The translations under genes were made by a program, and so were the position numbers. Shown one piece after another: positions 7,327 through 34,386 of a stretch of DNA of 64,000 bases. Source of the stretch: Escherichia coli (GTDB taxonomy: Bacteria; Pseudomonadota; Gammaproteobacteria; Enterobacterales; Enterobacteriaceae); the NCBI RefSeq assembly GCF_024700885.2, contig NZ_CP117016.1. One strand, given 5' to 3'. Under the pieces are notes generated by a model that saw only the letters and a program-made list of their open reading frames with translations, was not told the origin of the DNA and did not search any database. Position 1 is the first letter of the stretch, and every line of letters starts with the position of its first letter.

Positions 7327-7386
7327 TTAAATGCGAGGCCATTACATAAGTTTATTTTTGATGTGAGGGTGAATTCCCTCACATTT

Positions 7387-9101: not shown

Positions 9102-9115
9102 AAAGTATGTAAATA

Positions 9116-9138: not shown

Positions 9139-9287
9139 ATGCCTGAAATCCAGTGTTTATCTATCTTTCCCGCTATATTAACTCTCTCAAGGTCAACCGA
9201 TATCAACGTACATCTACCAACATATGTTGGTACAGATGATGGTATTTCCGGTTCGATAATGCTTGTACCAACAGGGAGGGAATACGC

Positions 9288-11045: not shown

Positions 11046-11358
11046 ATGTCTTTAGATTCGCTGGCCTGCGGGCATGACAATGTCAAACAGTCAAAGATTG
11101 TGGCGTTGACGGTCAGTCTGGGTCGTAAAAACTTCCTGTTCTTCGGCTCTGACCATGGTGGTGAGCGGGGAGCGCTACTGTACAGCCTGATCGGGACGTG
11201 CAAACTGAATGACGTGGATCCAGAAAGCTACCTTCGCCATGTGCTTGGCGTCATAGCAGACTGGCCGGTCAACCGGGTCAGCGAACTGCTTCCGTGGCGT
11301 ATAGCACTGCCAGCTGAATAACACATCCCCGTCAATACGGCCCTCGCTGTACGCTTAC
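11046..11358 (+). mobile_element. IS66-family 3' remnant (TnpC C-terminus plus terminal repeat ending ...GTACGCTTAC)
   Basis: GRKNFLFFGSDHGGERGALLYSLIGTCKLNDVDPESYL; the same end sequence recurs at the other IS66 copies. Confidence 0.65.
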
Positions 11359-12878: not shown

Positions 12879-13117
12879 AAAAAAATATGATTCCTTACAA
12901 TACTGAATAGTATACCCCATTCCCCCTTGATGCGCAGCGGCGCTTAGCACACATATTATACATGGCCTCCGCGTACCGGCATGCCTCTATAAACCTGACT
13001 TATTTCACACTTTTCATATCGCATTGTAAAAACATTTGACATGCAAAACCTGAATTTGATTCACTTTATTCAGCATAAAGAACTTATGTTCCATATACAG
13101 AACTTAGTGAGAGTGAT

Positions 13118-14017: not shown

Positions 14018-14033
14018 TTACGAGGATCGTAAG

Positions 14034-15551
14034 ATGAATAAGACTCCGATACTCAAATTAAATAACTCGGATGATGTCGTTATTGCCAGGACAGAACTTC
14101 CTGCCGGAAGCTGGCTGGAATCTGAAAGTATGGAAACACGTGACCTTATTCCGGCAGGGCACAAAATTGCTCTTCGGGATATTCCGGCCGGCAGTGCCGT
14201 TAAACGCTATGGACAGATAATCGGTTTTGCGACCCGTGACATCCGACAGGGCGAACATATTCATGTGCATAATCTCGGTATGGGGAGTTTTGAGCGTGAT
14301 TATGCCTGGGGGATAGACAGTCATCTTCCGGAAAAGGATGTTCATCAGGATACCTTTATGGGGATCCGCAGAAAAGACGGACGGGTGGCAACCCGTAATT
14401 ATATTGGTGTACTGAGTTCTGTAAACTGTAGTGCAACCGTAGTAAGGGCAATTGAAGATCATTTCCGTACCCGTGGTCTCAGTGATTACCCTAATGTGGA
14501 TGGTATTGTTGCCCTCCCACAAAGTTTTGGTTGTGCCTTTGGCTCTGACAGCGAAATGATGAAAGTCATGCGGAGGACAATGGCAGGCTATGCCACGCAC
14601 GCGAACTTTGCCGGGATCGTGATCGTGGGACTGGGATGTGAATCATTCCAGATTAAGGACATGATGAATGCCCACGGATTACATGAAAGTCCTGTATTCC
14701 ATACAATGACTATTCAGGAAAGCGGCGGAACACGTAACGCTATAGAAAAAGGTATTTCCTTCATTCTCGACATGCTCCCGGAAGCCAACAATGTCAAACG
14801 AGAACCAGTTCCGGTATCAGAAATCATTCTGGCTCTTGAGTGTGGCGGCTCTGATAGCTATTCAGGAATTTCCGCTAATCCGGCTCTCGGGTACGCAGTT
14901 GATCGCCTGGTTCGCCAGGGAGGAACGGCTATTCTGTCGGAAACATCGGAAATTTATGGAGCAGAACACCTTCTGACACGCCGTGCCATTAGTCGCGAAG
15001 TTGGCGAGAAACTAATCCGCAGAATTAAGTGGTGGGAAGAGTACTGTAAACGTACAGGGAGTGAAATGAATAACAACCCTTCTGCAGGTAATAAAGCGGG
15101 GGGACTGACCACTGTTCTGGAGAAATCGCTGGGAGGGATAGCAAAAGCTGGTACAACCAGCTTAATGGATGTATATGAATATGCTGAACCGGTGACAGCA
15201 AAAGGGCTTGTCTTTATGGATACCCCCGGATATGACCCGATGGCAGTAACCGGACAAATCGCCGGAGGAGCCAACCTGCTGTGTTTTACCACGGGCAGGG
15301 GATCTGCCTTTGGCGCAAAACCCACTCCTTGTCTGAAACTGTCAACCAATAACGCACTATGGCAACGGCAGCGCGACGACATGGATTTAAACTGTGGCAC
15401 GATTGTTGATGGCGAAGAAACAATAGAACAGGTTGGAGAACGTATTTATCAGAGAATTATTGAGCTGGCTTCAGGTCATCGTAGTCGAAGTGAAGAGCTG
15501 GGTTATGGGAGCCAGGAATTCGTTCCCTGGATAATGAACTCAATCATGTAA
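14034..15551 (+). CDS. UxaA/GarD-family sugar-acid dehydratase (SAF N-domain)
   Basis: 505-aa protein with altronate/galactarate dehydratase architecture. Confidence 0.7.
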   Translation: MNKTPILKLNNSDDVVIARTELPAGSWLESESMETRDLIPAGHKIALRDIPAGSAVKRYGQIIGFATRDIRQGEHIHVHNLGMGSFERDYAWGIDSHLPEKDVHQDTFMGIRRKDGRVATRNYIGVLSSVNCSATVVRAIEDHFRTRGLSDYPNVDGIVALPQSFGCAFGSDSEMMKVMRRTMAGYATHANFAGIVIVGLGCESFQIKDMMNAHGLHESPVFHTMTIQESGGTRNAIEKGISFILDMLPEANNVKREPVPVSEIILALECGGSDSYSGISANPALGYAVDRLVRQGGTAILSETSEIYGAEHLLTRRAISREVGEKLIRRIKWWEEYCKRTGSEMNNNPSAGNKAGGLTTVLEKSLGGIAKAGTTSLMDVYEYAEPVTAKGLVFMDTPGYDPMAVTGQIAGGANLLCFTTGRGSAFGAKPTPCLKLSTNNALWQRQRDDMDLNCGTIVDGEETIEQVGERIYQRIIELASGHRSRSEELGYGSQEFVPWIMNSIM

Positions 15552-15628
15552 TAACTACAGGCATAATTTGTTTTGCCCGGAAATAAGGAAACAAACTGAA
15601 TCCTGTTTTTGATAATTAGAGGTGAATA

Positions 15629-16636
15629 ATGGAACGTAAACCAGTACTGGGCATTTTTTTAGGTGAAGCTGCCGGCATTGGACCTGAACTGGTTGCCAAA
15701 GTCGTAGCTGATGGTACTGTCTATAAATATTGCAGACCTGTTCTGATTGGCGATGCCCGGGTACTTGCTCTTGGGCAAGAGATTGCTGGTGTGGATTTTC
15801 AGTGGGATGTCATCAGTGATCCCACTGAAGCTGACTGGACTACGGGAAATGTACCATTACTTGATTTGAAAAATTTTAATCCCGAAAAACTAACTATGGG
15901 CACCATTGACACTGCCTCAGGTTATGCAACAGGAGAATCACTGGTAACCTGTATGTCATTACTTAAATCAGGTAAAATTGACGGTTTTGTTTTCGCTCCA
16001 CTCAATAAAGAAGCGTTCAAGAAGGGGGGCTGGGATATTGAGGACGAACATTATCTCTTTGCTGAGCAGTTAGGATACTTGGATAAACCACGTGGCCTGT
16101 TGAATGTCCTTGATGACCTCTGGGTTTTTCGCGTGACGGGACATATTCCATTCAAAGATATTGCCAGCCATATTACACCAGAAAATGTCAGTCGTTCGAT
16201 TCAGTTATGCTACGATACATTAAAGATGGCGGGTTATAAATCACCTCGCATTGCAGTTGCGGCACTAAATCCTCATGCTGGTGATGGTGGTACATGTGGC
16301 ACTGAGGAAATAGATGTACTTATCCCTGTAATTGAAATGTTTCGGGAGAAAGGAATGGATATGTACGGTCCTGTCCCAGGGGACACCATCTTTATTCATG
16401 CATTTAATCATGAATATGATGCGATCGTTACCCTGTTCCATGATCAAGGACAAATTGCCACCAAGCTTCATTCCTTTGATGTGGGCATAACTGTAGCCGC
16501 CGGGCTTCCATTTGCTATAACAACACCGGAACATGGCACTGCATTTGATATTGCAGGTAAGGGGATCGCAAAAACAATGGCTACAGAGAGGGCTATTGCT
16601 GTTGCAGCCAGAATGGCATCAACAACACAGAAATAA
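15629..16636 (+). CDS. PdxA-family NAD-dependent dehydrogenase
   Basis: 335 aa; family-level match to 4-hydroxythreonine-4-phosphate dehydrogenase-like proteins. Confidence 0.65.
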   Translation: MERKPVLGIFLGEAAGIGPELVAKVVADGTVYKYCRPVLIGDARVLALGQEIAGVDFQWDVISDPTEADWTTGNVPLLDLKNFNPEKLTMGTIDTASGYATGESLVTCMSLLKSGKIDGFVFAPLNKEAFKKGGWDIEDEHYLFAEQLGYLDKPRGLLNVLDDLWVFRVTGHIPFKDIASHITPENVSRSIQLCYDTLKMAGYKSPRIAVAALNPHAGDGGTCGTEEIDVLIPVIEMFREKGMDMYGPVPGDTIFIHAFNHEYDAIVTLFHDQGQIATKLHSFDVGITVAAGLPFAITTPEHGTAFDIAGKGIAKTMATERAIAVAARMASTTQK

Positions 16637-16937
16637 TTTTTATAATAGCAGATAATAATACAATATATAACTTATATTGAGGGATATAGATATTATCTGC
16701 ATTAAAATGAGCTTTATAAAATGTCTTTATAAAGTTATCGCAAGTAATAGTGACTGTTTAAAATAGCAATAGACTATTTTATCTTCTAAGGAATACGATA
16801 CAGTCTATTGTTGGACTTATAGGAGCACTACTTCTCGGAACTATTCTTTGTTAGTAATTTCGCAATCAATATCCAGAAAGTAAAATCAAATTTTAACATA
16901 TTTAGTCTAATAGGTGTATTATTAAAGGAGAATAATT

Positions 16938-18203
16938 ATGTCCGCCTATGAGAAAGCAACAAATATAAGATGGAGAATATTTTTTGTACTTTTCCTTCTT
17001 GTTGTTGTCAGTATGATTGATCGAGCCTCAATATCTATAGCTATGCCTACTATTGCTAAAGATCTGGGATTAAGCGATACGATGCAAGGACTAATCTTGA
17101 GTGGTTTTTTCTGGACTTATGCATGCATGCAAATACCGGGTGGATTTTTAGCCGATAAATTTGGGGCAAGAATTATATTAGCATGCTCGGCAATACTTTG
17201 GGGAACTGCAGAAGCACTATTAGGGTTATGCCCAACAGGCTTTGCCTTACTTGCTGCTAATCTATTGCTTGGTGCAAGTGAAGCACCTGTATTTCCTTCT
17301 GGAGCCAGACTGAATGCAATCTGGCTTAACAAAAATGAAAGAGCTCGGGGAGCAACACTAATGGATGCAGGAGGGCCATTTGGTGCTGCAATTGGAGGAA
17401 TATTAGTAGCTGAAATGATGTTATATTTTACATCATGGCGGATTACCTTCATTATTTGTGGCATCGCAGCTATAACTCTGGGGCTAATCGCATACTGGGT
17501 TATTCGCGACAGGCCTGAAGATTCGCCAAGAGTGAATAACAAAGAACTGGGAATCATTAATCTCGATCGTGTTGTACAAGATACAGTAGAAGAAAATAAT
17601 GATCCCTTATTAAAAGTGATTCCACTACGTTCCTTCATCGGCATGCTTCTAGGCCGTTGTTCATGGGCTATGTGTTTCTTTGGTTTATTAACATGGGGGC
17701 CGGGATATCTTACACGAGCATTAAACCTGGATTTAAAAGCCGTTGGGTTTGCCACAATGATCGTTTTCTGTGCAGGTGGTTGTGGTAGCCTTTGTGGAGG
17801 ATGGCTCGCAGATAAACTTGCAAGTAAAGGGTTCGGACAGGCTAGATCATGTAAATTTCTATTAACAGTGTCAGGTATCTGCACGCTTATATCATTTGCT
17901 TTATTACCAAGTATTCCTGACGTAAAAACATCGATTATTTTACTGTCCTGCGCTGCATTTGTTTTAATGTGGGGAAGTATGTACTGGACATTCCCTCCTT
18001 TACTGGCACCCCGTTCTCGCGTAGCTACCGTCGGAGGAATGATGAATATGGCGGGAAGTGTTGGGGGCATTTGCATTCCTTTATTAGTAGGACTTATTTT
18101 AGATGTAACAAATTCATTCAATCCTGTACTCTATTTCTTTGCTGGTTGCGCAGTGATATTTATTTTAATGACAAACATTATTGATTTACGACACGTGCGA
18201 TAG
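16938..18203 (+). CDS. MFS transporter
   Basis: 421 aa, multi-pass hydrophobic; strong SD aaggag. Confidence 0.7.
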   Translation: MSAYEKATNIRWRIFFVLFLLVVVSMIDRASISIAMPTIAKDLGLSDTMQGLILSGFFWTYACMQIPGGFLADKFGARIILACSAILWGTAEALLGLCPTGFALLAANLLLGASEAPVFPSGARLNAIWLNKNERARGATLMDAGGPFGAAIGGILVAEMMLYFTSWRITFIICGIAAITLGLIAYWVIRDRPEDSPRVNNKELGIINLDRVVQDTVEENNDPLLKVIPLRSFIGMLLGRCSWAMCFFGLLTWGPGYLTRALNLDLKAVGFATMIVFCAGGCGSLCGGWLADKLASKGFGQARSCKFLLTVSGICTLISFALLPSIPDVKTSIILLSCAAFVLMWGSMYWTFPPLLAPRSRVATVGGMMNMAGSVGGICIPLLVGLILDVTNSFNPVLYFFAGCAVIFILMTNIIDLRHVR

Positions 18204-18212
18204 GAGATAAAT

Positions 18213-19169
18213 ATGAACATTAAGCCACTAAATTTATATGATGGTCCTGTAATCGATGCTCATCATCATTTCTGGGATCCGATAAAAAACGATCATCCTT
18301 GGTTGAAACCGGATGTTTTAATTCCTTTTAGATATGGTGATTATACAGCCATTAAGAGAAAATATTATCCAGAAGATTATTTTGCAGATGTAGGTGATAT
18401 TAATATTGTTGAAACATGTTATATGGAAACTGAATGGAATCCAACGGATCCATGTGGTGAAAGCGATTTCATTACATCAGTGGCAAAAATGACAGGTTAT
18501 CCAAATGCTGTTGTCGGTCAGGCTTGGTTAAACCATGATGATATAGATTCTGTATTAAAAATGCAGAGCTCATATAAGCTAATGCGAAGCATCAGACATA
18601 AACCTGAAGGCCCGGATAAACCAGAAGATGTTGGACAGTATACCACACTGATGAGTGATGAAAAATGGCGATATGGCTATTCGTTACTTTCGAAATATAA
18701 TTTAATGTTTGACCTTCAGACCCAGTGGTGGAACCTGCATGAAGCAGTAAAACTTGCAAATGATTTTCCAGATACAGTCATAATACTTAACCATACAGGA
18801 CTTCCTGCACAACGATCTGCTGAAGGGCTTGCCGGTTGGCATTCAGCAATGGCTTCTTTAGCTGAGTGTCAAAATGTTATGGTCAAAATTTCGGGAATAG
18901 GTTTAAAAGGAATCCCATGGACAATGGAGAATAATTTATGGATTATATCTGAAACCTTATCAATGTTTGGTCCTGACAGGGTAATGTTTGCAAGCAATTT
19001 CCCCGTAGATAGCCTTTGTGGCAGCTTTACTAATATATTCCATGGTTTTATGACAGTGTGTGAAATGAAAGGATATTCGCATGCCGCTCAGCGGAAGATG
19101 TTTCATGACAATTGTAAGAGAATTTATCGAACAATCCCACCACATAAATTGAAAGAAAAGCATAGCTAA
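18213..19169 (+). CDS. Amidohydrolase-2 family metal-dependent hydrolase (possible lactonase or lactone isomerase)
   Basis: 318 aa with N-terminal DAHHH motif typical of TIM-barrel amidohydrolases. Confidence 0.6.
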   Translation: MNIKPLNLYDGPVIDAHHHFWDPIKNDHPWLKPDVLIPFRYGDYTAIKRKYYPEDYFADVGDINIVETCYMETEWNPTDPCGESDFITSVAKMTGYPNAVVGQAWLNHDDIDSVLKMQSSYKLMRSIRHKPEGPDKPEDVGQYTTLMSDEKWRYGYSLLSKYNLMFDLQTQWWNLHEAVKLANDFPDTVIILNHTGLPAQRSAEGLAGWHSAMASLAECQNVMVKISGIGLKGIPWTMENNLWIISETLSMFGPDRVMFASNFPVDSLCGSFTNIFHGFMTVCEMKGYSHAAQRKMFHDNCKRIYRTIPPHKLKEKHS

Positions 19170-21297: not shown

Positions 21298-21702
21298 ATG
21301 AAATCATTAACCGCAGTGCGTAAAAAAAGCCCTAATTATCCCGTTGAGTTCAAAATCAAAATGGTTGAACTCTCGCATCGACCAGAGATCTCCGTAGCGC
21401 AACTCGCTCGTGAGCATGGGATCAACGATAATTTGCTGTTCAAGTGGCGCCAGTACTGGCGCGAAGGAAAACTACGTCCTCCTTCAACAACAGAAAACAA
21501 CGTGCCTGAGCTGCTCCCGATAACACTTGATGCCGAAGATGTTGTCCCTACAACCTCCCCCCGGTCACAACCTGTAGCTGCTGCGACACCTGAATCACTC
21601 AATATCAGCTGTGAAGTGACGTTCCGGCACGGATCACTCCGTCTGAATGGTGCCATCAGCGAAAATATCCTGAACCTGCTGATACGGGAGCTCAAACGTT
21701 GA
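21298..21702 (+). CDS. IS66 OrfA
   Basis: 134 aa; IS66-family accessory protein motif AREHGINDNLLFKWRQ. Confidence 0.7.
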   Translation: MKSLTAVRKKSPNYPVEFKIKMVELSHRPEISVAQLAREHGINDNLLFKWRQYWREGKLRPPSTTENNVPELLPITLDAEDVVPTTSPRSQPVAAATPESLNISCEVTFRHGSLRLNGAISENILNLLIRELKR

Positions 21703-22046
21703 TCCCATTACCATCAGGGACAAAGATCTGGCTGGTCGCTGGCATCACCGATATGAGAAACGGCTTCAACGGCCTGGCGGCAAAGGTGCAGACGACGCTG
21801 AAAGACGATCCGATGTCAGGTCACGTTTTTATCTTCCGTGGGCGTAATGGCAGTCAGGTAAAGCTCCTCTGGTCTACCGGCGATGGACTGTGTCTGCTGA
21901 CCAAACGGCTGGAGCGCGGCCGCTTCGCCTGGCCGTCAGCCCGGGATGGCAAAGTGTTCCTCACACCGGCACAGCTGGCGATGCTGCTGGAAGGTATCGA
22001 CTGGCGGCAGCCTAAAAGACTACTTACGTCCCTGACTATGTTGTAA
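21699..22046 (+). CDS. IS66 OrfB (TnpB)
   Basis: 115 aa; overlaps orfA by 4 bp as is typical. Confidence 0.7.
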   Translation: MIPLPSGTKIWLVAGITDMRNGFNGLAAKVQTTLKDDPMSGHVFIFRGRNGSQVKLLWSTGDGLCLLTKRLERGRFAWPSARDGKVFLTPAQLAMLLEGIDWRQPKRLLTSLTML

Positions 22047-22094
22047 GCCTCTTTATCCTGGTCGACGCTGAATGAGCCTGGTAATATACCCGGT

Positions 22095-23519
22095 ATGAGC
22101 AGCTCACTTCCTGACGATATCAATGCACTGAAACGTCTCCTTGCCGAACAGGAGGCGCTGAACCGTGCCCTGCAGGAAAAGCTGAACGAGCGTGAACGCG
22201 AAATAGACCATCTGCAGGCACAGCTGGATAAGCTGCGCCGGATGAACTTCGGCAGCCGCTCGGAAAAAGTCTCCCGTCGTATCGCACAGATGGAAGCTGA
22301 CCTGAAGGCACTTCAGAAAGAAAGTGATACCCTTACCGGTCGGGTTGACGACCCGGCCGTGCAGCGCCCGCTGCGTCAAACCCGCACCCGCAAACCGTTC
22401 CCCGAATCACTCCCCCGCGATGAAAAACGGCTGCTGCCGGCAGCGTCATGCTGCCCGGAATGTGGAGGCTCGCTGAGCTATCTGGGTGAGGATGCCGCCG
22501 AACAGCTGGAGTTGATGCGCAGCGCCTTCCGGGTTATCCGGACTGTACGTGAAAAGCATGCCTGTACTCAGTGCGATGCCATCGTGCAGGCCCCCGCGCC
22601 TTCACGGCCCATCGAGCGGGGTATCGCAGGACCGGGGCTGCTGGCCCGCGTGCTGATCTCAAAGTATGCAGAGCACACCCCGCTGTACCGCCAGTCTGAA
22701 ATGTACGGCCGCCAGGGCGTGGAGCTGAGTCGTTCACTGCTGTCGGGCTGGGTGGATGCATGCTGCCGGCTACTGTCACCGCTGGAAGAAGCGCTTCAGG
22801 ACTATGTGCTGACTGACGGTAAGCTCCATGCTGATGACACGCCTGTCCCGGTGCTGTTGCCAGGCAATAAGAAAACGAAGACCGGGCGGTTATGGACCTA
22901 CGTTCGTGACGACCGTAACGCCGGGTCAACGCTGGCGCCGGCGGTGTGGTTCGCTTACAGCCCGGACAGAAAAGGCATCCATCCGCAGACCCATCTTGCG
23001 GGGTTCAGTGGTGTACTGCAGGCGGATGCATACGCCGGGTTCAACGAGCTGTACCGGGATGGCCGGATAACGGAAGCCGCCTGTTGGGCTCACGCCCGCC
23101 GTAAAATCCACGATGTGCACGTTCGCACCCCGTCAGCCCTGACGGAGGAAGCGCTGAAACGGATCGGCGAACTGTACGCCATCGAGGCAGAGATAAGGGG
23201 AATGACGGCGGAGCAGCGCCTTGCCGAACGTCAGTTGAAAACGAAACCGCTGCTGAAATCCCTGGAAAGCTGGCTGCGTGAAAAGATGAAAACCCTGTCG
23301 CGACACTCAGAACTGGCGAAAGCGTTCGCATACGCCCTGAACCAGTGGCCGGCGCTGACGTACTATGCAGATGATGGCTGGGCTGAGGCGGACAATAACA
23401 TCGCTGAAAATGCGTTGCGGATGGTCAGTCTGGGCCGCAAAAACTCTTATGACCTTTGTCAAATATTAAGCCCAAAAAGACCTACGCAGCTCCGGGAGCT
23501 TCGTTATATCGCGGATTAA
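22095..23519 (+). pseudogene. IS66 TnpC transposase, interrupted after codon GRKN (~23444) by IS110 insertion; C-terminus resumes at 24897-25079
   Basis: Homology ends at ...MVSLGRKN and resumes at GGERGALLYSLIGTCKLNGVEPESYL on the far side of the insertion. Confidence 0.75.
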
Positions 23520-24896
23520 AGAACCTGAAACAGTCAGACTGTATCTTGGATTTTACAAACTCTTATTCGGGGATTTTAGCCCCATGACGATTTACGCAGT
23601 GAGCTGGCCTCTTTCTACGTGCAGGTATTAGCGCATTCTGGCTTCCCTGAATTCTTTTTCGAGGATCACTCATTCCGTGTCTGACTGCTTCAGGGTTTAA
23701 TTTTGCTTCTGCTGACTGAATGATGATTGGGCAGCAAGTGCAATATCCCACATAAATCCAGTCAACTCACGAGCCACCGCCGTAATGGCTACTTGTGATT
23801 TTTTCCCTTTTGCTGTCAGAGTTCGGTAACGAGAACACAATCGTTGTTGAGCTTTCCATGCAATATCTTTGGAATATTGTGTTACAGAGTCCGGTCGGTA
23901 ATATATAAGCCATGCACCAACTTTTGCAGGTGTACGATAAGACCAGGCGGCTTCGTAAAGCAGACGTCTCAGTTCGCTGTTTCCAACTTTTGTTATTCCT
24001 CTGGGACGAATACTGTTTCCACTGGAATATTCACCTGGCACCAGTCCCAGAAAAGCCATGAGCTGTTTGGGATTGGAAAATCGCGAAAAATCACCCAGTT
24101 CAGCAACCAGGGTTATTGCAATTAGCTGACCAACACCTTTTAGAGCCTGCAACTGGCAGACCAGATTGCACAGAGACCACTCAGGTAACAGGCGAGATAT
24201 TTCCTGGTCGAGTTGAAGTATGCGATCTTCAATCTGCTCCAGACTTTGACAATAGTGTTGAAAAGCAATCTGCTGAGATGGCTGACTAAATGATTGATTA
24301 GCTAACCAGGTTCGATGTTTGCCGGTCCAGTGCTTCCCTGCATAACGTTTGTCTGTTCGCAATAGCATGCTCAGAATTCGCTGTCGGGCAACTCTGCTGT
24401 CTCGTTTAGCTGCTGCACGGGCTCTGATTAGATCCCGCATAGCTTCATGAGTCAGGTCAGGGATCCAGACAGGGGTAAGTTCACCAGCCCGCAGTAACCT
24501 GGCAAGAGAAATTGCGTCCCGATGATCATTTTTGATTCTGTCTGTCGGTGATTTTGGTATCCGGGAAGGGGCAATAACCTGGAATTTTATATTCATCGCT
24601 GTGAGTTGATGATATAGCCCAAAACCACAGGGGCCAGCCTCATAGCAGGAAAGAATGTTTCCGTAAAGTCCCTGCAATTTCTGAAATAATCGACGTACAG
24701 CCTGGGCTTCGTTGTTAATCGTACCATAATAACGAACTTCGCCAAGCCGTTCAGGTGCAGCAATAGCAACCGCCAACGTTTCTTTATGTACATCCAGCCC
24801 GATGTAAGCTGCAATATTTTCCGAATGCATAATGACCTCCTCTGGAATATCCCACCAATGCTATAGTGAGTATATAAAGGTCATACCATCTACCTG
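23445..24896 (-). mobile_element. IS110-family element (~1.45 kb) inserted in IS66 tnpC
   Basis: Boundaries inferred from where IS66 tnpC homology breaks and resumes; carries the 377-aa transposase. Confidence 0.65.
23697..24830 (-). CDS. IS110-family transposase
   Basis: 377 aa; N-terminal YIGLDVHK (DEDD-type) and C-terminal LKGVG.LIAITLVAELGDFSRF motif. Confidence 0.75.
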   Translation of the reverse strand: MHSENIAAYIGLDVHKETLAVAIAAPERLGEVRYYGTINNEAQAVRRLFQKLQGLYGNILSCYEAGPCGFGLYHQLTAMNIKFQVIAPSRIPKSPTDRIKNDHRDAISLARLLRAGELTPVWIPDLTHEAMRDLIRARAAAKRDSRVARQRILSMLLRTDKRYAGKHWTGKHRTWLANQSFSQPSQQIAFQHYCQSLEQIEDRILQLDQEISRLLPEWSLCNLVCQLQALKGVGQLIAITLVAELGDFSRFSNPKQLMAFLGLVPGEYSSGNSIRPRGITKVGNSELRRLLYEAAWSYRTPAKVGAWLIYYRPDSVTQYSKDIAWKAQQRLCSRYRTLTAKGKKSQVAITAVARELTGFMWDIALAAQSSFSQQKQN

Positions 24897-25124: not shown

Positions 25125-25770
25125 AACGTCCGATAGCGATGATCTGAAGTGCACTATTTGCAGCACGCTCCCCACCCCGATTAAGTCGGTAACGGTTCAT
25201 TTTTTTAGAAGATACGGTAACCGAGTTGACACCACACAGCACCGCAAAACCTGATTCTATTCTTAGCCGTTGGGGATTATCTCCGGCAGTGATGAGCAAC
25301 TGCGAAGCGCTTTCGTATCCAACAGCATTACGTTTAATCAGTTCAGGTGCCAGTTCATCGACAATTGCCGCAATCATGACATCAAGGTCGGCGATTTCAT
25401 CATGTAACTCGAAATAGCGTCAGGCAAGTGATTTCAATGCAATGCGATAAACGTTGGTAACATTACGATATTCACTGGCACTAGGCTTCCAGGATCCCGG
25501 AGTCCTGATAAGTTGCATACGTGTCATATTTCTGAGTGGTTCGCGTAATTCATCCGGTGCAGAGATAATATAGGAATGGATAATCTGGAGAGCGACTCTG
25601 CAGGCTGATATTGCGGTTTTGCGGCAAGTTTTTGGCATCCGCTTCTACGCCAAATACCTGAAGTAGGAATGGATGCGTTAGCAGCATACATCCGGATCTG
25701 CGCGGGGAATAGCCGGAAACGGCTATCCCTACCACAATAGCTAACTTTGTAATAGTGCCCTTTTAGGCTC
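25125..25770 (-). pseudogene. Degenerate IS110-family transposase remnant
   Basis: Fragments in two frames with the IS110 C-terminal-domain pattern (FAVLCGVNSV..SSKKMNRYRLNRGGERAANSAL). Confidence 0.4.
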
Positions 25771-26800
25771 ATGTACTCTGACGTAATTCTATCTGGTAGT
25801 TGAATTGCACGATACGCGACTCTTCTGATTCATCATGATTATTATTCAATAGCCCAATCAGTAACTTACCCGTCTCTATCCCCATTTTTTTGTAGTCAAT
25901 ACGGATGGATGTCAAGGTTGGGTGTGTTTGATCGCAATTGTCTGAACCATCAAGACAAGCTACAGCGATATTTTCAGGAATTTTTAACAAACGCCGCTGG
26001 CACTCAAACATGATACCCAGCGCAATCTCTTCGTGGCTGCAAATCACAGCATCCAGCTCTGGTTGTCGCAGTAATATCTCGTTTAATGCGTAACGCCCCA
26101 ATTGCAGACTTGCGGCATCCGGCATGGTGATAACAAGATCAGAGTTCTGGTAATGGCTCAACATTGCTTTATGCCAGCCGTTCAGTTGCTGACGTTGCAG
26201 GCGGTTGTCCATATGCGCACCGATAAATCCGATATTCTTATAACCCTGTTCCAGCAGATGTTCGGTCAGTTTATGTGATGCTTCAAAAAATGCTGTTTCG
26301 ATGGTAATTTGAGCCGGACTGAAAGGGGAACCGACAACGTTAATGGTAGGTATATTTGTTTTCTCGAGTATCTGGTGAGTTTTATCAGCCAACTGAGAAC
26401 CAAAAATAACTAACGCCGCCGGGTTGCCTTGAAGAAGCGTCATCAGAATTTCAGCTTCTTTGAGCTGATTATACTCATGACACCCAAGCAGTAGCTGGAA
26501 TTCATTTTTATTAAGCACCTGCTGCAACGACTGCATAAAGCGGGAGCTGGCTTTATCTGTCAGGGAAGGAACCAGTACGGCGACTGTATCACTGTGACCA
26601 GATGCAAGGGCGCCAGCAGTTCTGTTGGGAATATAACCCAACTCTTCTACGGCCTGTTCTATCTTTTCCCTCAGCTTGTCAGATACCTGTTCCGGTGTTC
26701 TCAGCGCACGGGAAACGGTCATGGTTCCGACACCTGCAAAGTTAGCGACCTCCTGCAGCGTCACCCGTCCGGTACCACGGCGCTTACGTGTTTTTTCCAT
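25769..26800 (-). CDS. LacI-family transcriptional regulator
   Basis: N-terminal HTH VTLQEVANFAGVGTMTVSRAL plus periplasmic-binding-like domain. Confidence 0.8.
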   Translation of the reverse strand: MEKTRKRRGTGRVTLQEVANFAGVGTMTVSRALRTPEQVSDKLREKIEQAVEELGYIPNRTAGALASGHSDTVAVLVPSLTDKASSRFMQSLQQVLNKNEFQLLLGCHEYNQLKEAEILMTLLQGNPAALVIFGSQLADKTHQILEKTNIPTINVVGSPFSPAQITIETAFFEASHKLTEHLLEQGYKNIGFIGAHMDNRLQRQQLNGWHKAMLSHYQNSDLVITMPDAASLQLGRYALNEILLRQPELDAVICSHEEIALGIMFECQRRLLKIPENIAVACLDGSDNCDQTHPTLTSIRIDYKKMGIETGKLLIGLLNNNHDESEESRIVQFNYQIELRQST

Positions 26801-27070
26801 TTCGACTCCATGGATAATTACAACCAGCTGTTTTCATTACTTTTATTTCACCATTACTCTTTCCAGTTTTTGCCCACGGTAGCAAATATCCTGTTGCATT
26901 GTATATGCAGGAACCGAATATAGCCAAAGCATGGCGGCAGAGAAATGATAGCGCTATCACAAAGATTGATAGCGTTATCAGATAGCGCTATCAAATGCGA
27001 CAATCATCACATTAATTAATGCGTAAAATATCTACTCTCCTGTTAATTATCATCGGGAGTTATCAGTAGC

Positions 27071-27514
27071 ATGTTAAAAAATCTATTAAATACAGAGGTC
27101 GTTCAGGTCGTGGAACAGGCCAAAGACTGGCGGGAAGCCGTGGCGATTTCATGCCGGCCGTTGATTGAAAACGGTTCTATCGAACCGCGTTATGTTGATG
27201 CGATCTATCGCTCGCACGACACTATCGGTCCGTACTATGTGGTTGGCCCTGGTATTGCGATGCCTCATGCGCGCCCGGAAGAGGGAGCTAACAAGCTGTC
27301 ATTAGCACTGACCCTGATCCCTTCAGGTGTGAATTTTGATGCCGATGAAAACGATCCAGTGAAATTACTGATTGTGCTGGCTGCAACCGACAGTACCAGC
27401 CACATTGAAGCGATTTCTCAACTCGCCAAGTTATTCGATAACGAAAAAGACATACAGGCCATTTTGATGGCCAAAACGACGCAGGACATTTTGTCTGTTA
27501 TTGCGCGCTATTAA
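27071..27514 (+). CDS. PTS EIIA component (ascorbate/mannitol-type)
   Basis: 147 aa with GIAMPHAR phosphorylation-site motif. Confidence 0.75.
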   Translation: MLKNLLNTEVVQVVEQAKDWREAVAISCRPLIENGSIEPRYVDAIYRSHDTIGPYYVVGPGIAMPHARPEEGANKLSLALTLIPSGVNFDADENDPVKLLIVLAATDSTSHIEAISQLAKLFDNEKDIQAILMAKTTQDILSVIARY

Positions 27515-27529
27515 TCCAGAGGAACATTT

Positions 27530-27817
27530 ATGAAAATTACAGTGGTTTGCGGTAACGGCTTAGGCACCAGCCTGATGATGGAAATGAGCATTAAAAGCAT
27601 TTTGAAGGATTTGTCCGTCAGCGCTGATGTTGATCACGTCGACCTGGGCTCCGCGAAAGGGACGTCGAGTGATATCTATGTCGGCACCAAAGACATTGCC
27701 GAGCAGTTAGTCGCGCAGTCTGTCGCAGGCAAAATCGTCGCACTGGAAAATATGATTGATAAGAAAGCCATGAGAGAACGTTTATCCGTGGTATTAAACG
27801 AATTAGGCGCACTGTAA
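27530..27817 (+). CDS. PTS EIIB component
   Basis: 95 aa with N-terminal VVCGNGLGTS Cys motif. Confidence 0.75.
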   Translation: MKITVVCGNGLGTSLMMEMSIKSILKDLSVSADVDHVDLGSAKGTSSDIYVGTKDIAEQLVAQSVAGKIVALENMIDKKAMRERLSVVLNELGAL

Positions 27818-27829
27818 GCTGGGGGCGAT

Positions 27830-29086
27830 ATGGATTTCTTTCGTTTTTTGATGAGCGATGTACTTTCCGAACCCGCAGTGCTGGTCGGTTTAATCGCCCT
27901 GATTGGCCTGATTGCACAGAAAAAACCGGTAACCGAATGCATTAAAGGTACCGTCAAGACCATTATGGGGTTTGTGATTTTAGGCGCAGGGGCGGGTTTA
28001 GTTGTGTCGTCACTGGGTGACTTCGCAAACATTTTCCAGCATGCCTTTGGTATTCAGGGTGTAGTGCCGAACAATGAAGCCATTGTTTCCGTAGCGCAGA
28101 AAAGCTTCGGGAAAGAAATGGCGATGATTATGTTCTTTGCGATGGTTATCAACATTATGATTGCCCGTTTCACACCGTGGAAATTTATCTTCCTGACCGG
28201 TCATCACACGTTGTTTATGTCGATGATGGTAGCGGTAATTCTGGCAACAGCAGGCATGACCGGCATTACGCTTATAGCCGTTGGCTCTTTGGTTGTTGGC
28301 GTGGCAATGGTCTTTTTCCCGGCTATTGCGCATCCGTACATGAAGAAAGTGACCGGTTCTGATGACGTTGCCATCGGCCACTTCTCAACATTATCTTATG
28401 TATTGGCCGGTTTCATCGGCAGCAAGTTTGGTAATAAAGAGCACTCGACTGAAGACATGAATGTGCCGAAAAGTCTGCTGTTCTTGCGCGACACGCCGGT
28501 TGCTATCTCTTTTACCATGAGCATAATTTTCCTGGTGACGTGCCTGTTTGCGGGTGCAGATGCGGTGAAAGAGCTTAGCGGTGGTAAAAACTGGTTCATG
28601 TTCTCTATCATGCAATCCATTACCTTCGCAGCTGGCGTGTACATCATTCTGCAGGGTGTGCGCATGGTGATTGCGGAGATTGTCCCGGCATTCAAAGGTA
28701 TTTCAGACAAGCTGGTTCCGAATGCCAGACCTGCTCTCGATTGCCCGGTCGTCTTCCCTTACGCACCTAACGCTGTACTGGTTGGTTTCCTGAGTAGCTT
28801 TGCTGCAGGTTTAATCGGTATGTTCACGTTGTATCTGCTGAACATGATCGTGATTATTCCTGGTGTGGTGCCGCACTTCTTCGTAGGTGCAGCTGCAGGG
28901 GTATTCGGTAATGCAACGGGTGGACGTCGTGGTGCGATTTTGGGTGCCTTCGCTCAAGGCTTGCTTATTACCTTCCTGCCAGTATTCTTATTGCCGGTGC
29001 TGGGTGATATTGGTTTTGCTAACACCACCTTCAGTGATGCTGACTTTGGCGCACTGGGTATTTTGTTAGGGATTATCGTTCGCTAA
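27830..29086 (+). CDS. PTS EIIC permease (SgaT/UlaA family)
   Basis: 418 aa polytopic membrane protein immediately after IIA and IIB. Confidence 0.75.
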   Translation: MDFFRFLMSDVLSEPAVLVGLIALIGLIAQKKPVTECIKGTVKTIMGFVILGAGAGLVVSSLGDFANIFQHAFGIQGVVPNNEAIVSVAQKSFGKEMAMIMFFAMVINIMIARFTPWKFIFLTGHHTLFMSMMVAVILATAGMTGITLIAVGSLVVGVAMVFFPAIAHPYMKKVTGSDDVAIGHFSTLSYVLAGFIGSKFGNKEHSTEDMNVPKSLLFLRDTPVAISFTMSIIFLVTCLFAGADAVKELSGGKNWFMFSIMQSITFAAGVYIILQGVRMVIAEIVPAFKGISDKLVPNARPALDCPVVFPYAPNAVLVGFLSSFAAGLIGMFTLYLLNMIVIIPGVVPHFFVGAAAGVFGNATGGRRGAILGAFAQGLLITFLPVFLLPVLGDIGFANTTFSDADFGALGILLGIIVR

Positions 29087-29332
29087 TATTTTGATGACAT
29101 TAATATCCTCCAGGATTTCAGGAACGTGGAGGATATTAATTCCTCTTATTTTCTCCATTTTTCTTTCTTCCAGTCAGGACTGCATCCGATTAATCGTAAG
29201 CGCTCCGAGAAGTACGTAGCGTAAGGATTATTTTACAGCTGAGAAGTTTCAGTGCAGCAGTTCATGCACACGGTTCGACGGCTAGTCATTGATCTTCATA
29301 ATTACCTCGCGTAAAAAACGGGGTAAGGCCGC

Positions 29333-29524
29333 TCATCCCAGCGTCATCTCCACAGGTAATAATTCAACGCCAATGCCAGAAGAGTTCGTTAACGGAAGAC
29401 GCCGTGATATACGCCCTTTGATCAGCGAGAGCCTGAGCCATTTGAACAGAAGATTATCATTGATATCATGCTCCCGGGCAATACGGGCAACAGAACCCCT
29501 TGGTTGTAAAGCCAGTGTAACCAT
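29333..29524 (-). pseudogene. IS66-like OrfA fragment
   Basis: ARIAREHDINDNLLFKW motif. Confidence 0.4.
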
Positions 29525-30008
29525 TTGAAGTTTAAACTCATTTGAAAATGACCTGCGGGGTTCAGCTGATAATGTTTTTTGTTCTATAACAGGTGTCCAC
29601 TTGTTGAAAAGGTGGGTACCTATGTTACCAATACAGGCTTAATGGCTACATACAGCAGTCGGTTTACGCATACACTTTTATAGTGCACTCCGGCCTCATG
29701 AATATAACGGTGGATTACCGCCGAACGAATCGGAAAATAGATACTGGAAAAAATCTGAAATTGTGACCAGTTTTTGTTGACCACTACAAATAAATAAAAG
29801 AGTTGCAGTGCTTGCTCGGTAAGAAAACAATGGAAGTTGAGATCCTAAAAGAAGCTGTGGAGTACACCACTCTACAGTAGTTGCGCAAATTTGGAGTGGA
29901 CGATAATGTGATCGTCTATAAGGGCAACGCTATCATAGTATTGTCCTGGCGGGTAAAAAAACGCGCTTACATTAACGATAAGCGCGCCGCTGTTCAGGCC
30001 TTAAGTGG

Positions 30009-31022
30009 TTATTCAATTCCTGTGGTGACTGTAAAAGTGCGTGTTTGCTGCGGTGCAACCTGAATCAGCGTGCCATTACGTTGCGCGGCAAGATACCCCT
30101 CAGGCCGACAGGTTGCAGGTAATGCAAAGGCGGCTACCTGTTGCTCGCCGTTATAAAGGATCCAGCGTGTCACATAATTTAGTTCGGCACTGGAGAAACG
30201 AGTAACAAACGTAGTGCCATCGGGAGCGATCATGCGAAACTCTGGCTGATCTGTGTAAGCGTCCAGTTTGTCTGCAAAGAAGACTATTTCTGGATCATAA
30301 AATTCCGGTTGATTCAGCGTCGACAGAGAGGCTTCTCCCTGCATAATCCGTTGATTAAACGCCAGCCACTGAGCGGTGGGATTAACATGCGAAGGTACTG
30401 ATTCACGCAACCTTAATATTTCGTCCGGTATATTCTGGCTGAACGTAGCATTTGGTATATATGCATAATTCATGTGGCACATATATTGTAGTGGCATATC
30501 TACAGAAGCCAGATTGGTTACGGCCATCTTAATATCGAACAATGTAGAGGATTTGTGAAGGACCACTGTTGGCTGAGCCAGATAATGATGCCCGAACCCC
30601 ATTACATACTCGCAACGCCCGGTAAGGCGTAACATATCTCCCTCTAATTCCATCCATGCTTCATCCATCGCGGCACAGGCCATTTCACCGTGTAGCAGAT
30701 GAGTATCTTCCGCAGATGGGCAGCCATTAGCCAGCAAACCTGAATGAAAGGCAAAACAGCCATAGGTTTCTATCACCTCTGTCGCCGGTTTAGGCTGGCG
30801 AAACATATTGCACATGGTGAGACTGTGTCCATCAAATTGCGCATCCCAAATCATCTGCCCCATCCAGGGAAGAATAATTAAATGTCCACGACTGTTTGCA
30901 ATTTTAAGCCCCTCGACACCACTGTCATAGCGAAAAGACGTGACAGTAAAATCACTATTTTCCAGCAAGATACGAGGTTTTTCGCCAAAAAGCGCCCGCC
31001 ACAAATAAATACGCGTACTCAT
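30009..31022 (-). CDS. deoX: DeoX-like protein of the deoxyribose operon
   Basis: 337 aa; operon position after deoK and deoP as I recall for the Salmonella/ExPEC deoQKPX locus; SD aggag. Confidence 0.6.
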   Translation of the reverse strand: MSTRIYLWRALFGEKPRILLENSDFTVTSFRYDSGVEGLKIANSRGHLIILPWMGQMIWDAQFDGHSLTMCNMFRQPKPATEVIETYGCFAFHSGLLANGCPSAEDTHLLHGEMACAAMDEAWMELEGDMLRLTGRCEYVMGFGHHYLAQPTVVLHKSSTLFDIKMAVTNLASVDMPLQYMCHMNYAYIPNATFSQNIPDEILRLRESVPSHVNPTAQWLAFNQRIMQGEASLSTLNQPEFYDPEIVFFADKLDAYTDQPEFRMIAPDGTTFVTRFSSAELNYVTRWILYNGEQQVAAFALPATCRPEGYLAAQRNGTLIQVAPQQTRTFTVTTGIE

Positions 31023-31033
31023 AACGATTCTCC

Positions 31034-32350
31034 TCAGGACTCTGTGACTTCAGCCAGTGCATTACGTACTTTGCTTTCACGCCAGAAGTAGACTCCGACA
31101 TAGACAAAGCAGAGCATAGAAACCAGGAATGAAAGCTGAAGTGAGTGGAACATATCTGCAATATATCCCTGAATTGCCGGAACCACCGCGGCGCCGACAA
31201 TAGCCATAACAATGACTGCTCCTGCCATTTCTGTATGTTCGTTATCAACTGTATCCAGTGTTCCTGCATAGATCGTCGCCCAGCAAGGGCCAAACAAAAC
31301 ACTTACCAGGACGGCGACATAGACCGCGCTGAAACTTGGAGCCAGTGCAACATATGCCAGGAACAGCGCCCCTATAACGGAATAGAGAATCAATACTTTT
31401 TCCGGATTAAAACGCGTCATAAGGATGTTGGCTATAAACTTGCCAATAAAGAAGCAGGCAAAGCTATAGACCATGAAGTTTGAAGCATCACGTTCGTTGA
31501 TATCGCCCAACTCCAGTGCCAGACGGATGGTAAATGACCATACTGCGACCTGCATACCCACATAAAGGAATTGAGCCACAATACCACGACGAAAGCGCGA
31601 ATTTTTAGCCAGATAGCGCAGCGTATCCATTGCTGACGGGCGTTTATGGTGACTTGTCTGTGCCACTTTACAGGTTGGGAAGCGGGTTAAAAGGAACAAC
31701 ACCATGACCACAACCAGAATCATAATCATATACTTATACGGTTCAAGGGTGTTCTCTAACATCAGCACCTTAAAGTTGTGAATTTGCTCGGCGTTCATTC
31801 CGGACATCTGCTTCTCAAGGCTTTCCCCCTCGGAGAAAACCAGATATTTGCCCAATAAAATACCAGACGCAGCACCAATCGGATAAAAGGTCTGGCTGAT
31901 ATTGAGCCGCAATGTGGCATAGGCTTTTGGACCGATCATTGAACTGTATGTGTTCGCTGCAGTTTCAAGGAAACTCAGGCCAATCGCAATCGCAAAAATA
32001 GCTGCAAGGAACATAGTGTAGGTTGCCATATGCGAGGCAGGGAAAAAAAGTGTACAACCACCAATATACAGCGTCAGGCCAATTAAAATTGCCACCTTAT
32101 AACTGGTCTTTTTAATCACAAGGGATGCTGGTATTGCAATTAAAAAATAACCTCCATAAAATGCGCTCTGCACCAATGCTGAAGCAAAGTTACTTAGCGA
32201 AAATACACTTTTGAATTGAGTGATTAATATGTCATTTAATGCAGCTGCGCATCCCCATAGCGGGAATAAACACGATAACAAAATAAACTGGAACAAGGGA
32301 GTCTTATTCAGATATCCATCAGGCATCTGAATGATGTTTTTATCGTTCAT
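31034..32350 (-). CDS. deoP: Deoxyribose permease (FucP-type MFS)
   Basis: 438 aa MFS permease between deoK and deoX. Confidence 0.7.
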   Translation of the reverse strand: MNDKNIIQMPDGYLNKTPLFQFILLSCLFPLWGCAAALNDILITQFKSVFSLSNFASALVQSAFYGGYFLIAIPASLVIKKTSYKVAILIGLTLYIGGCTLFFPASHMATYTMFLAAIFAIAIGLSFLETAANTYSSMIGPKAYATLRLNISQTFYPIGAASGILLGKYLVFSEGESLEKQMSGMNAEQIHNFKVLMLENTLEPYKYMIMILVVVMVLFLLTRFPTCKVAQTSHHKRPSAMDTLRYLAKNSRFRRGIVAQFLYVGMQVAVWSFTIRLALELGDINERDASNFMVYSFACFFIGKFIANILMTRFNPEKVLILYSVIGALFLAYVALAPSFSAVYVAVLVSVLFGPCWATIYAGTLDTVDNEHTEMAGAVIVMAIVGAAVVPAIQGYIADMFHSLQLSFLVSMLCFVYVGVYFWRESKVRNALAEVTES

Positions 32351-32377: not shown

Positions 32378-33298
32378 TTATTCGTTTAAGGTTAAAAATT
32401 CATTAAATTGTTCAATACTCGGATAAGATGATTGCGTACCTTTCCCTGTGACGCTGAAAGCGGCAAAGAGAGCGGCTTTTTTCAAAGCGGCTTCAACATC
32501 ACCGCTTTGAACATAATAATGGGAAAAGCAACCAATAAATGCGTCACCAGCGCCACTAGTATCAACAGCATTTACTTTGAATGCAGGAACATGGACTTCC
32601 TGATCGCGGGTCATCCATAATGCGCCTTTTTCGCTCATGGTAACAATAATATTGTTCAGCCCTTTATCAACTAACGAACGTGCGGCCAAACGAATATGAT
32701 CATAAGTATCAACCGACATACCGGTTAATATTTCCAGTTCTGTTTCATTCGGGATAAAGAAATCACATTTGCAGGCATAAGACATATCTAACTCACGCAA
32801 TGCCGGAGCCGGATTTAATAACACTTCAATACCATTTATCTTACCAAACTCAATCGCGTGGTAAACTGTTTCCAGTTGAACTTCCAGTTGTAAAACGATC
32901 AATTTGCATTTTTTCAGATCTTCTGCAGCTCGATCGATATCTTCCGGGGAAAGAAATTTATTCGCTCCCTTAATTATTAATATACTATTGCTCGAGTTGG
33001 CATTAACAAAGATCGGTGCAACACCACTGCTGGTACAGGGGACCTTCTCAACATAAGTGGTATTAATTCCCCATGATTCAAGATTACGAATAGTATTATC
33101 CGCAAAAATATCATCACCTACTTTAGTCAGCATCAGGACTTTTGAATTCAATTTAGCCGCCGCCACCGCTTGATTAGCACCTTTCCCACCACATCCGATT
33201 TTGAAGGCAGGTGCTTCCAGAGTTTCTCCTTCTTTAGGCATCTGATTAGTGTAAGTAATGAGATCCACCATATTGGAACCAATAACTGCAATGTCCAT
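32378..33298 (-). CDS. deoK: Deoxyribokinase (ribokinase/PfkB family)
   Basis: PfkB signatures (GGKGANQA, DTSGAGDAF); start at MDIAVIG with SD agagg. Confidence 0.75.
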   Translation of the reverse strand: MDIAVIGSNMVDLITYTNQMPKEGETLEAPAFKIGCGGKGANQAVAAAKLNSKVLMLTKVGDDIFADNTIRNLESWGINTTYVEKVPCTSSGVAPIFVNANSSNSILIIKGANKFLSPEDIDRAAEDLKKCKLIVLQLEVQLETVYHAIEFGKINGIEVLLNPAPALRELDMSYACKCDFFIPNETELEILTGMSVDTYDHIRLAARSLVDKGLNNIIVTMSEKGALWMTRDQEVHVPAFKVNAVDTSGAGDAFIGCFSHYYVQSGDVEAALKKAALFAAFSVTGKGTQSSYPSIEQFNEFLTLNE

Positions 33299-33603
33299 TT
33301 CACTACCTCTTATAAACTTTCGCATAACAATGGTATTTAAATAACATTAGCATGTTACTTTTGCATCATTTGTGACTGAGATCGCGATTAGCACATCAAC
33401 CCGATGTTTATTTAATAGACTTCCAGTCTCATCACTCAGGCCAACACTATCTAATCATAAGCAACCTAACAAGATTAGTGCCCAAAACTCAGCAGCCTAT
33501 ACCCTTTTCATTTCAAAGGGTCGGTCGTATAGTATGGTAATGAAAACAATGTTTACTAACGCCAAAATGTTATTTTTATAACATTCTTACGGAGAGAGAG
33601 TTG

Positions 33604-34386
33604 ATGGAAACGAAGCAAAAAGAGCGTATCCGACGTTTGATGGAACTGCTTAAGAAAACTGACAGAATCCATTTGAAAGACGCAGCGCGAATGCTGGAAG
33701 TTTCTGTAATGACTATTCGTCGCGATCTCCATCAGGAAGATGAACCTCTGCCACTGACCCTACTGGGTGGCTATATTGTAATGGTGAATAAACCCGCGCC
33801 ATCCATGCCAGTAATCCATGACGTTCCAAAAAATCATCGTGATGACTTACCTATTGCAATTCTGGCTGCCGGAATGGTTAATGAAAATGATCTGATCTTC
33901 TTTGATAATGGCCAGGAGATACCACTCGTTATAAGCATGATCCCGGATGCAATCACCTTCACCGGCATCTGTTACTCACATCGCGTCTTTGTTGCGTTGA
34001 ATGAAAAGCCTAATGTAACAGCAATACTTTGTGGTGGTACGTATCGTGCCAGAAGTGATGCTTTTTACGATGCCAGTAACTCTTCGCCATTAGACTCTCT
34101 CAATCCGCGAAAAATATTTATTTCCGCCAGCGGTGTGCATAATCACTTTGGCGTCAGCTGGTTTAACCCTGAAGATCTTGCCACTAAGCGTAAAGCGATG
34201 AACCGTGGACTACGGAAAATTTTGCTCGCCCGCCACGCGTTGTTCGATGAAGTGGCCTCTGCCAGCCTTGCACCGATCTCTGCATTTGACGTTCTGATTA
34301 GCGATCGTCCGTTACCGGCAGATTATGTTACGCACTGCCAGAATGGTTCTGTAAAGATCATTACACCTGATTCAGAAGACGAATGA
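33604..34386 (+). CDS. deoQ: DeoR-family repressor
   Basis: N-terminal HTH and C-terminal sugar-phosphate-binding domain; divergent from deoK. Confidence 0.7.
   Translation: METKQKERIRRLMELLKKTDRIHLKDAARMLEVSVMTIRRDLHQEDEPLPLTLLGGYIVMVNKPAPSMPVIHDVPKNHRDDLPIAILAAGMVNENDLIFFDNGQEIPLVISMIPDAITFTGICYSHRVFVALNEKPNVTAILCGGTYRARSDAFYDASNSSPLDSLNPRKIFISASGVHNHFGVSWFNPEDLATKRKAMNRGLRKILLARHALFDEVASASLAPISAFDVLISDRPLPADYVTHCQNGSVKIITPDSEDE

Follow-up and report, generated by a model that had tools for sequence, protein, structure and literature searches.

We analysed a 64,000-nucleotide stretch of Escherichia coli DNA (contig NZ_CP117016.1 of assembly GCF_024700885.2; hereafter the window) that carries a carbohydrate phosphotransferase system (PTS), vpeABC, transcribed divergently from its putative regulator gene, vpeR. 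A first-pass annotation had placed a three-component PTS with a LacI-type regulator here, and both the listing of open reading frames (ORFs) and profile searches agree, giving four genes (lengths in amino acids, aa):

25769-26800, minus strand: vpeR, LacI-family repressor, 343 aa (Pfam LacI 69 bits, Peripla_BP_3 90 bits)
27071-27514, plus strand: vpeA, PTS EIIA, 147 aa (Pfam PTS_EIIA_2 125 bits)
27530-27817, plus strand: vpeB, PTS EIIB, 95 aa (Pfam PTS_IIB 49 bits)
27830-29086, plus strand: vpeC, PTS EIIC of the SgaT/UlaA (L-ascorbate) family, 418 aa (Pfam EIIC-GAT 500 bits)

The divergent region between vpeR and vpeA measures 270 bp in the ORF listing. VpeC aligns with the UlaA structure 4RP8 at E=2.5e-50, and the regulator is of the LacI type; no linked ulaG/ulaDEF genes and no DeoR-type UlaR were found in the window flanks.

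The locus, which the first-pass annotation had not recognised as such, is the already known vpe operon of extraintestinal and diarrhoeagenic E. coli and not a new find, because the VpeC accession, the gene order and the protein lengths agree with a published table. One strain, 100% identical in its DNA, has the EIIC protein annotated under the accession WP_000345347.1, which the PMC6455142 supplementary table gives as VpeC. The entries there run in the order VpeR (343 aa), VpeA (147 aa), VpeB (95 aa), VpeC, transposase, DeoM, DeoP, DeoK and DeoQ, and the window ORFs have the same lengths as the supplement entries (343, 147, 95 and 418 aa). The vpe loci of E. coli AL511 and of islands in extraintestinal pathogenic (ExPEC), enteroaggregative (EAEC) and Shiga toxin-producing (STEC) strains share with the window the VpeC accession, the protein lengths and the order with the transposase and the deoK operon, but the copy described in PMC6455142 sits in a pheV island, whereas the window copy lies in an island beside tRNA-Leu(CAA). 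In published work, vpe and the deoK operon are placed on one region of difference and the vpe locus is compared to an O104:H4 strain (PMC5382810), and both operons are cited as aiding mouse gut colonisation (PMC6455142). The O104:H4 copy of vpe is 99.8% identical. The study of Martinez-Jehanne and colleagues in 2012 (Infect Immun 80:2655) reportedly did not identify the vpe substrate.

What becomes of the transported carbohydrate depends on whether genes are missing from the locus. The first-pass annotation had offered two options, namely that catabolic genes after the EIIC gene were lost through insertion sequence (IS) activity, or that the transporter feeds a pathway encoded elsewhere, and it had named homologous loci with the same three-gene unit complete everywhere as the outcome that would speak against an orphaned transporter. 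That comparison was run. Scanning one genome per GTDB species with the EIIC protein yielded 80 loci, in which ORFs were called and clustered, with about 10 kb inspected on each side in species other than E. coli. EIIC was recovered as a called ORF in 79 of the 80; the locus of Aeromonas caviae was missed by the clustering, and tblastn finds all four genes there. A LacI gene on the minus strand and an EIIA gene on the plus strand lie directly upstream, with EIIB between EIIA and EIIC, in 71 of 79 loci, and the genera represented include Buttiauxella, Yersinia, Brenneria, Providencia, Proteus, Edwardsiella, Photorhabdus, Xenorhabdus, Vibrio, Photobacterium, Grimontia and Aeromonas, among others. 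The four-gene unit without linked enzymes is kept across Enterobacterales, Vibrionaceae and Aeromonas.

The unit is surrounded by housekeeping genes, and these change from genus to genus. In Yersinia, Brenneria and Proteus it sits between the acetate kinase and phosphate acetyltransferase genes (pta-ackA) and a NUDIX gene, with the cassette inverted in Yersinia relative to Proteus; in Buttiauxella it sits between phoU-pst and the genes for a HAD phosphatase and a purine permease. Nucleotide homology of E. coli to each of the other genera is confined to 25757-29093, ending 12 bp past vpeR and 7 bp past vpeC. The gene 3´ of EIIC is convergent in 56 of 77 loci. Co-directional neighbours begin no less than 123 bp away, and those inspected encode an alanine racemase, a thioesterase, an AIR-synthase-like protein and, judged by eye, a diguanylate-cyclase-type sensor. 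No sugar-catabolic gene follows EIIC in any locus of the 80-locus set, and a search of the inspected distance for transketolase, transaldolase or SIS genes found none in any of them.

The genes also carry the marks of long-maintained function. VpeC amino-acid identity is 83-99% across the 80 species. Between E. coli and its nearest relatives here, Buttiauxella, the DNA is 84-88% identical and the VpeC protein 98-99%, and the ratio of nonsynonymous to synonymous change (Ka/Ks), taken where synonymous sites are unsaturated, is 0.01-0.02 for vpeC and 0.04-0.07 for vpeA, vpeB and vpeR. VpeC of E. coli is still 85-88% identical to that of Vibrio or Aeromonas, although synonymous sites are saturated at that distance. 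His66 of VpeA, within an MPHAR motif, is invariant in 79 of 79 orthologues and Cys7 of VpeB, within VVCGNG, is present in 78 of 79; by analogy with other PTS proteins, these are the candidate phosphorylated residues. VpeC H125, H184, D304 and R278, which correspond to UlaA H135, H194, D314 and R288, are invariant in 80 orthologues. Given the low Ka/Ks and the conserved His66 and Cys7, the cassette, judged by its sequence, is a working module under strong constraint. In such a module, phosphate would pass from phosphoenolpyruvate through the general proteins EI and HPr, encoded elsewhere, to His66 of VpeA, and then by way of Cys7 of VpeB to a carbohydrate held in VpeC, where the equivalents of UlaA His135, His194, Asp314 and Arg288 are retained.

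These observations bear directly on the proposal that an IS-mediated deletion removed catabolic genes once located 3´ of vpeC and left a transporter without a pathway. The debris in the window does begin 7 bp past the vpeC stop codon, IS remnants flank the module on both sides, and IS-driven loss is known at this locus, both in about 414 E. coli genomes that keep the last 885 bp of vpeC and in Yersinia pestis, which lacks vpeR, vpeA and vpeB. However, the enzyme-free four-gene state recurs, with unrelated flanks, in about 80 species; a useless transporter would hardly be under such strong purifying selection; and the published mutant phenotypes imply a function. We regard the deletion as refuted and extremely improbable: the unit is complete in 71 of 79 loci, its flanks are genus-specific and no catabolic gene follows EIIC, which is the outcome that the first-pass annotation had itself named as telling against it. 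The homologous loci favour instead the other option, a pathway encoded elsewhere. Because the enzyme-free unit is kept across taxa under strong purifying selection, the product is most likely handled by enzymes encoded elsewhere, and we think it very likely that vpeR with vpeABC is the complete published vpe unit, which never lost enzyme genes and whose product is handled elsewhere, probably in core metabolism.

Some loci depart from the standard arrangement. EIIA-EIIB-EIIC without an adjacent vpeR is found in Xenorhabdus species, Candidatus Fukatsuia symbiotica and Serratia microhaemolytica (loci L068, L071, L074-L078 and L080), and in Xenorhabdus a BCCT-type transporter gene lies upstream where vpeR would be. 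In Yersinia pestis NCTC5923 (7087-11257 of locus L026), only vpeC is intact, and two transposase-sized ORFs (402 and 469 aa) replace vpeR, vpeA and most of vpeB; other Yersinia species, unlike Y. pestis, keep the full cassette.

Family membership would suggest L-ascorbate as the substrate, and a second ascorbate PTS feeding the chromosomal ulaG/ulaDEF pathway is the reading closest to current annotation. Beyond its place in the SgaT/UlaA family, VpeC passes the NCBIfam model NF006919, "PTS ascorbate transporter subunit IIC", with 628 bits against a cutoff of 380. In RegPrecise, a LacI-type "SgaR" regulog (example STM2345), with about 4 sites per regulon and a spread over Enterobacterales, Aeromonadales and Vibrionales like that of VpeR, is labelled ascorbate/ascorbate-6-P. 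Database labels of this kind are, however, derived from annotation, and the NCBIfam equivalogs for the characterised system are all missed (UlaA 592 bits against 890, UlaB 30 against 138, UlaC 119 against 187). E. coli K-12 ulaABC encodes IIC, IIB and IIA in that order and is controlled by the DeoR-type UlaR. The remark in the first-pass annotation that gene order and regulator type set the locus apart from K-12 ula and sgc is in keeping with established knowledge. UlaABC (SgaTBA; structures 4RP8/4RP9 and 5ZOV) and Vpe have in common the permease fold family, a PTS_IIB-type IIB and a PTS_EIIA_2-type IIA, but UlaABC has the order C-B-A, the DeoR-type UlaR and linked ulaG/ulaDEF, whereas Vpe has the order A-B-C, a LacI-type regulator whose nearest matches are GntR and IdnR, and none of these genes linked.

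The binding pocket also speaks against ascorbate. The residues of UlaA that hold vitamin C are T86, Y87, H135, I136, Q139, H194, Q195, D314, I358 and F362 (PMC6048161), and we mapped them onto VpeC through the ungapped parts of a HMMER alignment. At the positions of UlaA T86, Y87, I136, Q139 and Q195, VpeC carries N, E, H, F and F; it retains the equivalents of H135, H194, D314 and F362 together with that of R288 and has Val for I358, all of these residues being invariant in 80 orthologues. Since 5 of the 10 mapped contacts are invariantly replaced, the ascorbate name is doubtful; the substrate is probably not L-ascorbate and the name a misnomer, and a second ascorbate PTS seems quite unlikely.

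The region between vpeR and vpeA suggests how the unit could be controlled and offers a second view of the substrate. It contains the following features, the first three of which we infer to be VpeR sites:

26946-26959, no strand assigned: operator O1, TGATAGCGCTATCA, a perfect palindrome
26967-26980, no strand assigned: operator O2, TGATAGCGTTATCA
26980-26993, no strand assigned: operator O3, aGATAGCGCTATCA
26996-27011, plus strand: CRP-like site TGCGA-N6-TCACA, read from the sequence, 60 bp upstream of the vpeA ATG and directly after O3

Matches of the operator type number 3 in the 64-kb window against 0.13 expected, and all fall in the divergent region; no further VpeR operators were found elsewhere in the window. 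Outside the intergenic region, the 80 loci contain only two one-mismatch, chance-like matches, and a BLAST search with the operator cluster against 5426 E. coli genomes returned the vpe locus alone, a search that detects only long or tandem matches. In an alignment of the divergent region from 72 species, conservation peaks at AAATGATAGCGCTATCACAA and at a further TAGCGCTA core, corresponding to O1 and O3, and a TGTGA-N6-TCA core is kept at the same place in the Yersinia, Photorhabdus and Vibrio loci. VpeR most likely represses at the three tandem TGATAGCGCTATCA-type operators and CRP most likely activates at the adjacent site. No strong sigma-70 consensus was found in front of vpeA, as expected for an activator-dependent promoter.

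O2 and O3 overlap, with a spacing of 13 bp. Such 13-bp spacing and overlap are typical of GntR-type LacI regulators (PMC4052901). The best NCBIfam matches of VpeR are likewise gluconate-type repressors, all under their cutoffs: Pseudomonas GntR at 279 bits (cutoff 400), IdnR at 208 (500) and E. coli GntR at 175 (433). The GntR and IdnR gluconate-idonate repressors are thus the nearest-scoring families to VpeR and have similar tandem, overlapping palindromic operators, but equivalog-level similarity is not reached, making them near relatives and not a family to which VpeR belongs. The effector domain of VpeR matches PDB 3D8U (E=3e-67), an uncharacterised structural-genomics entry named "PurR transcriptional regulator", which is probably the VpeR orthologue of V. 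parahaemolyticus.

These likenesses raise the possibility that Vpe imports gluconate, a keto-gluconate or another sugar acid, and that the product, 6-phosphogluconate for example, enters the Entner-Doudoroff or pentose phosphate pathway directly. Beyond the repressor matches and the GntR-like 13-bp overlap, ascorbate, the only characterised substrate of the family, is itself a sugar-acid lactone. We nonetheless consider a sugar acid unlikely. The GntR and IdnR scores are far under the equivalog cutoffs, the E. coli GntR operator is ATGTTA-N4-TAACAT, from which the VpeR half-site TGATAGC differs, and the sister permeases described below are linked to transketolase and transaldolase genes, not to gluconate enzymes.

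The operators vary within E. coli. O2 reads TGATAGCGTTATCA in the lineage of the window (about 84 genomes), whereas most E. coli have TGGTAGCGTTATCA; because the same position reads TGATAGCGCTATCA in Buttiauxella A111 and Y. ruckeri, O2 is degenerate in E. coli. In the blood-culture isolate E. coli AHB4 (3864-4099 of locus L089), the divergent region measures 236 bp as opposed to 270 bp through an exact 34-bp deletion that fuses O1 and O3, removes O2 and leaves a single operator. This natural variant may change repression.

The sister systems of Vpe may point toward central metabolism. An exhaustive search of 50%-identity representatives found nearest sister permeases that are only 45-53% identical to VpeC and have the NE, GHH/GHI and GHF pocket motifs in common with it. 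In three of the nine sister clusters read (P0121, P0122 and P0129), a whole or split transketolase, a TAL/FSA-family aldolase and/or SIS isomerases directly follow EIIC. Of the other six, one is a further enzyme-free IIA-IIB-IIC cassette, two are surrounded by dehydrogenase genes, two have only a PRD-type regulator gene and a IIB gene in view, and one is on a contig too short for context. The SgaT-family IIB-IIC operons of P0121, P0122 and P0129 have PRD-domain regulators with fused IIA, whereas Vpe is paired with a LacI regulator and lacks linked enzymes. Taken with the pocket unlike that of UlaA and the likeness of VpeR to gluconate repressors, this suggests that the phosphate ester of the substrate enters central sugar-phosphate metabolism without dedicated enzymes, by a pentose phosphate or a sugar-acid route. 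More specifically, and tentatively, Vpe may be a widely conserved PTS for a carbohydrate other than ascorbate whose ester is used directly by the core pentose-phosphate enzymes transketolase and transaldolase/FSA; a ketose that receives its phosphate on the terminal carbon would be one example. If true, this would explain why no enzyme genes accompany the cassette in Gammaproteobacteria, why sister systems have their own transketolase, transaldolase or SIS genes, and why capsule precursors are supplied differently once vpe is lost.

Several points weigh against the view of vpeR-vpeABC as a self-contained, enzyme-free unit with this kind of control. The SgaT subfamily is not always enzyme-free, given the three of nine sister clusters with enzymes after EIIC. 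A related PTS beside a split transketolase near pta is presumably encoded by Salmonella STM2340-2345, and a conserved but unlinked regulon may lie beyond the inspected flanks in other species. The promoter of vpeA is a putative one, assigned by consensus alone.

It is also conceivable that Vpe is mainly a sensory or regulatory branch of the PTS, whose phosphorylation state tunes capsule and virulence genes and does not serve nutrition. Group 2 capsule is much lower in vpe mutants, according to PMC5382810, which cites the 2012 study. Yet a LacI repressor, tandem operators and a CRP site are the typical layout of a catabolic uptake operon, and the VpeC pocket is invariant in 80 species that for the most part are not capsule-bearing ExPEC, so that we judge a mainly sensory role very unlikely.

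In the window, vpe is followed by IS debris and the deoK cluster:

29094-29950, no strand assigned: IS debris between vpe and the deoK operon (more than 5000 plasmid matches; cross-genus homology stops at 29093)
29333-29524, minus strand: IS66 tnpA fragment, 63 aa (HTH_Tnp_1 match)
30009-31022, minus strand: deoX/deoM, DUF4432, mutarotase-like
31034-32350, minus strand: deoP, FucP-type MFS permease
32378-33325, minus strand: deoK, ribokinase family
33601-34386, plus strand: deoQ, DeoR regulator

The first-pass annotation had called the debris IS66 OrfA-like and IS3-like. The first label holds: beside the HTH_Tnp_1 match, another strain carries a longer, 94-aa allele of the tnpA fragment (EFKLQMVKLALQPRGSVARIAREHDINDNLLFKW...), which can be aligned by eye to the IS66 TnpA of 21298-21702. 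The IS3-like label for 29803-29880 (...MEVEILKEAVEYTTLQ) is weakly supported; the nearby DNA at 29678-29788 has thousands of plasmid matches at 80-90% identity, some under IS3- and some under IS66-family transposase annotations. The deoK cluster, assigned from Pfam and NCBIfam profiles with the names DeoM, DeoP, DeoK and DeoQ from the PMC6455142 supplement, comprises deoxyribose genes and stands outside the PTS operon. The tnpA fragment and the deoK cluster are 3´ of vpeC in every E. coli context inspected, and the upstream flank in these contexts is IS110 debris or cdiBA. We considered a functional link between vpe and deoK and rejected it: their adjacency is limited to E. coli, IS debris separates them, they are on opposite strands and no other genus pairs them.

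The island that holds both operons has its edge at tRNA-Leu(CAA) (3419-3503 of the window). On the far side of this tRNA gene the identical strain has the core genes ahr, yjgR and lptG, and a truncated integrase gene and many IS fragments lie downstream of the tRNA gene. The region upstream of vpeR is heavily IS-ridden, with an IS66-family (ISEc22-like) element at 21298-23519, whose transposase gene is truncated at the 3´ end, followed by an intact IS110-like ISEc45 transposase gene at 23697-24830. The same island carries a catabolic-looking cluster at about 12114-19169, encoding an IclR regulator, a DHDPS-family protein, a UxaA-family hydrolase, a PdxA-family dehydrogenase, an MFS transporter and an amidohydrolase.

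Among 5426 complete E. coli genomes, 935 have the whole cassette at an identity of at least 98.8%, and the roughly 414 that keep only the last 885 bp of vpeC include the sequence type (ST) 131 strain EC958. In EC958 (6003-6878 of locus L086), the truncated vpeC is followed by an extra ISEc23 before the deoK cluster, and the catabolic-looking cluster of the island also lies upstream of it. The cassette is inactive in EC958-type genomes, a major ExPEC lineage, though it is counted as virulence-associated. On plasmid CP056626.1 (1-5620 of locus L088; IncFIB, from E. coli RHBSTW-00304), vpeR-vpeABC and the tnpA fragment stand between two copies of IS26, an arrangement from which it follows that the four genes have been mobilised on their own, as a unit bounded by IS26.

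The vpe locus itself is published, and finding it adds little. What the comparison contributes concerns a permease, VpeC, that has been tied to urovirulence, sepsis and colonisation of the gut by E. coli and that is one of the best conserved PTS permeases in enteric and marine Gammaproteobacteria. The search for its substrate is narrowed by an invariant pocket unlike that of UlaA, a regulator near the gluconate repressors, a defined operator with a CRP-like site, and sister systems tied to transketolase and transaldolase. The operator and its repressor would be direct reagents for an induction screen.

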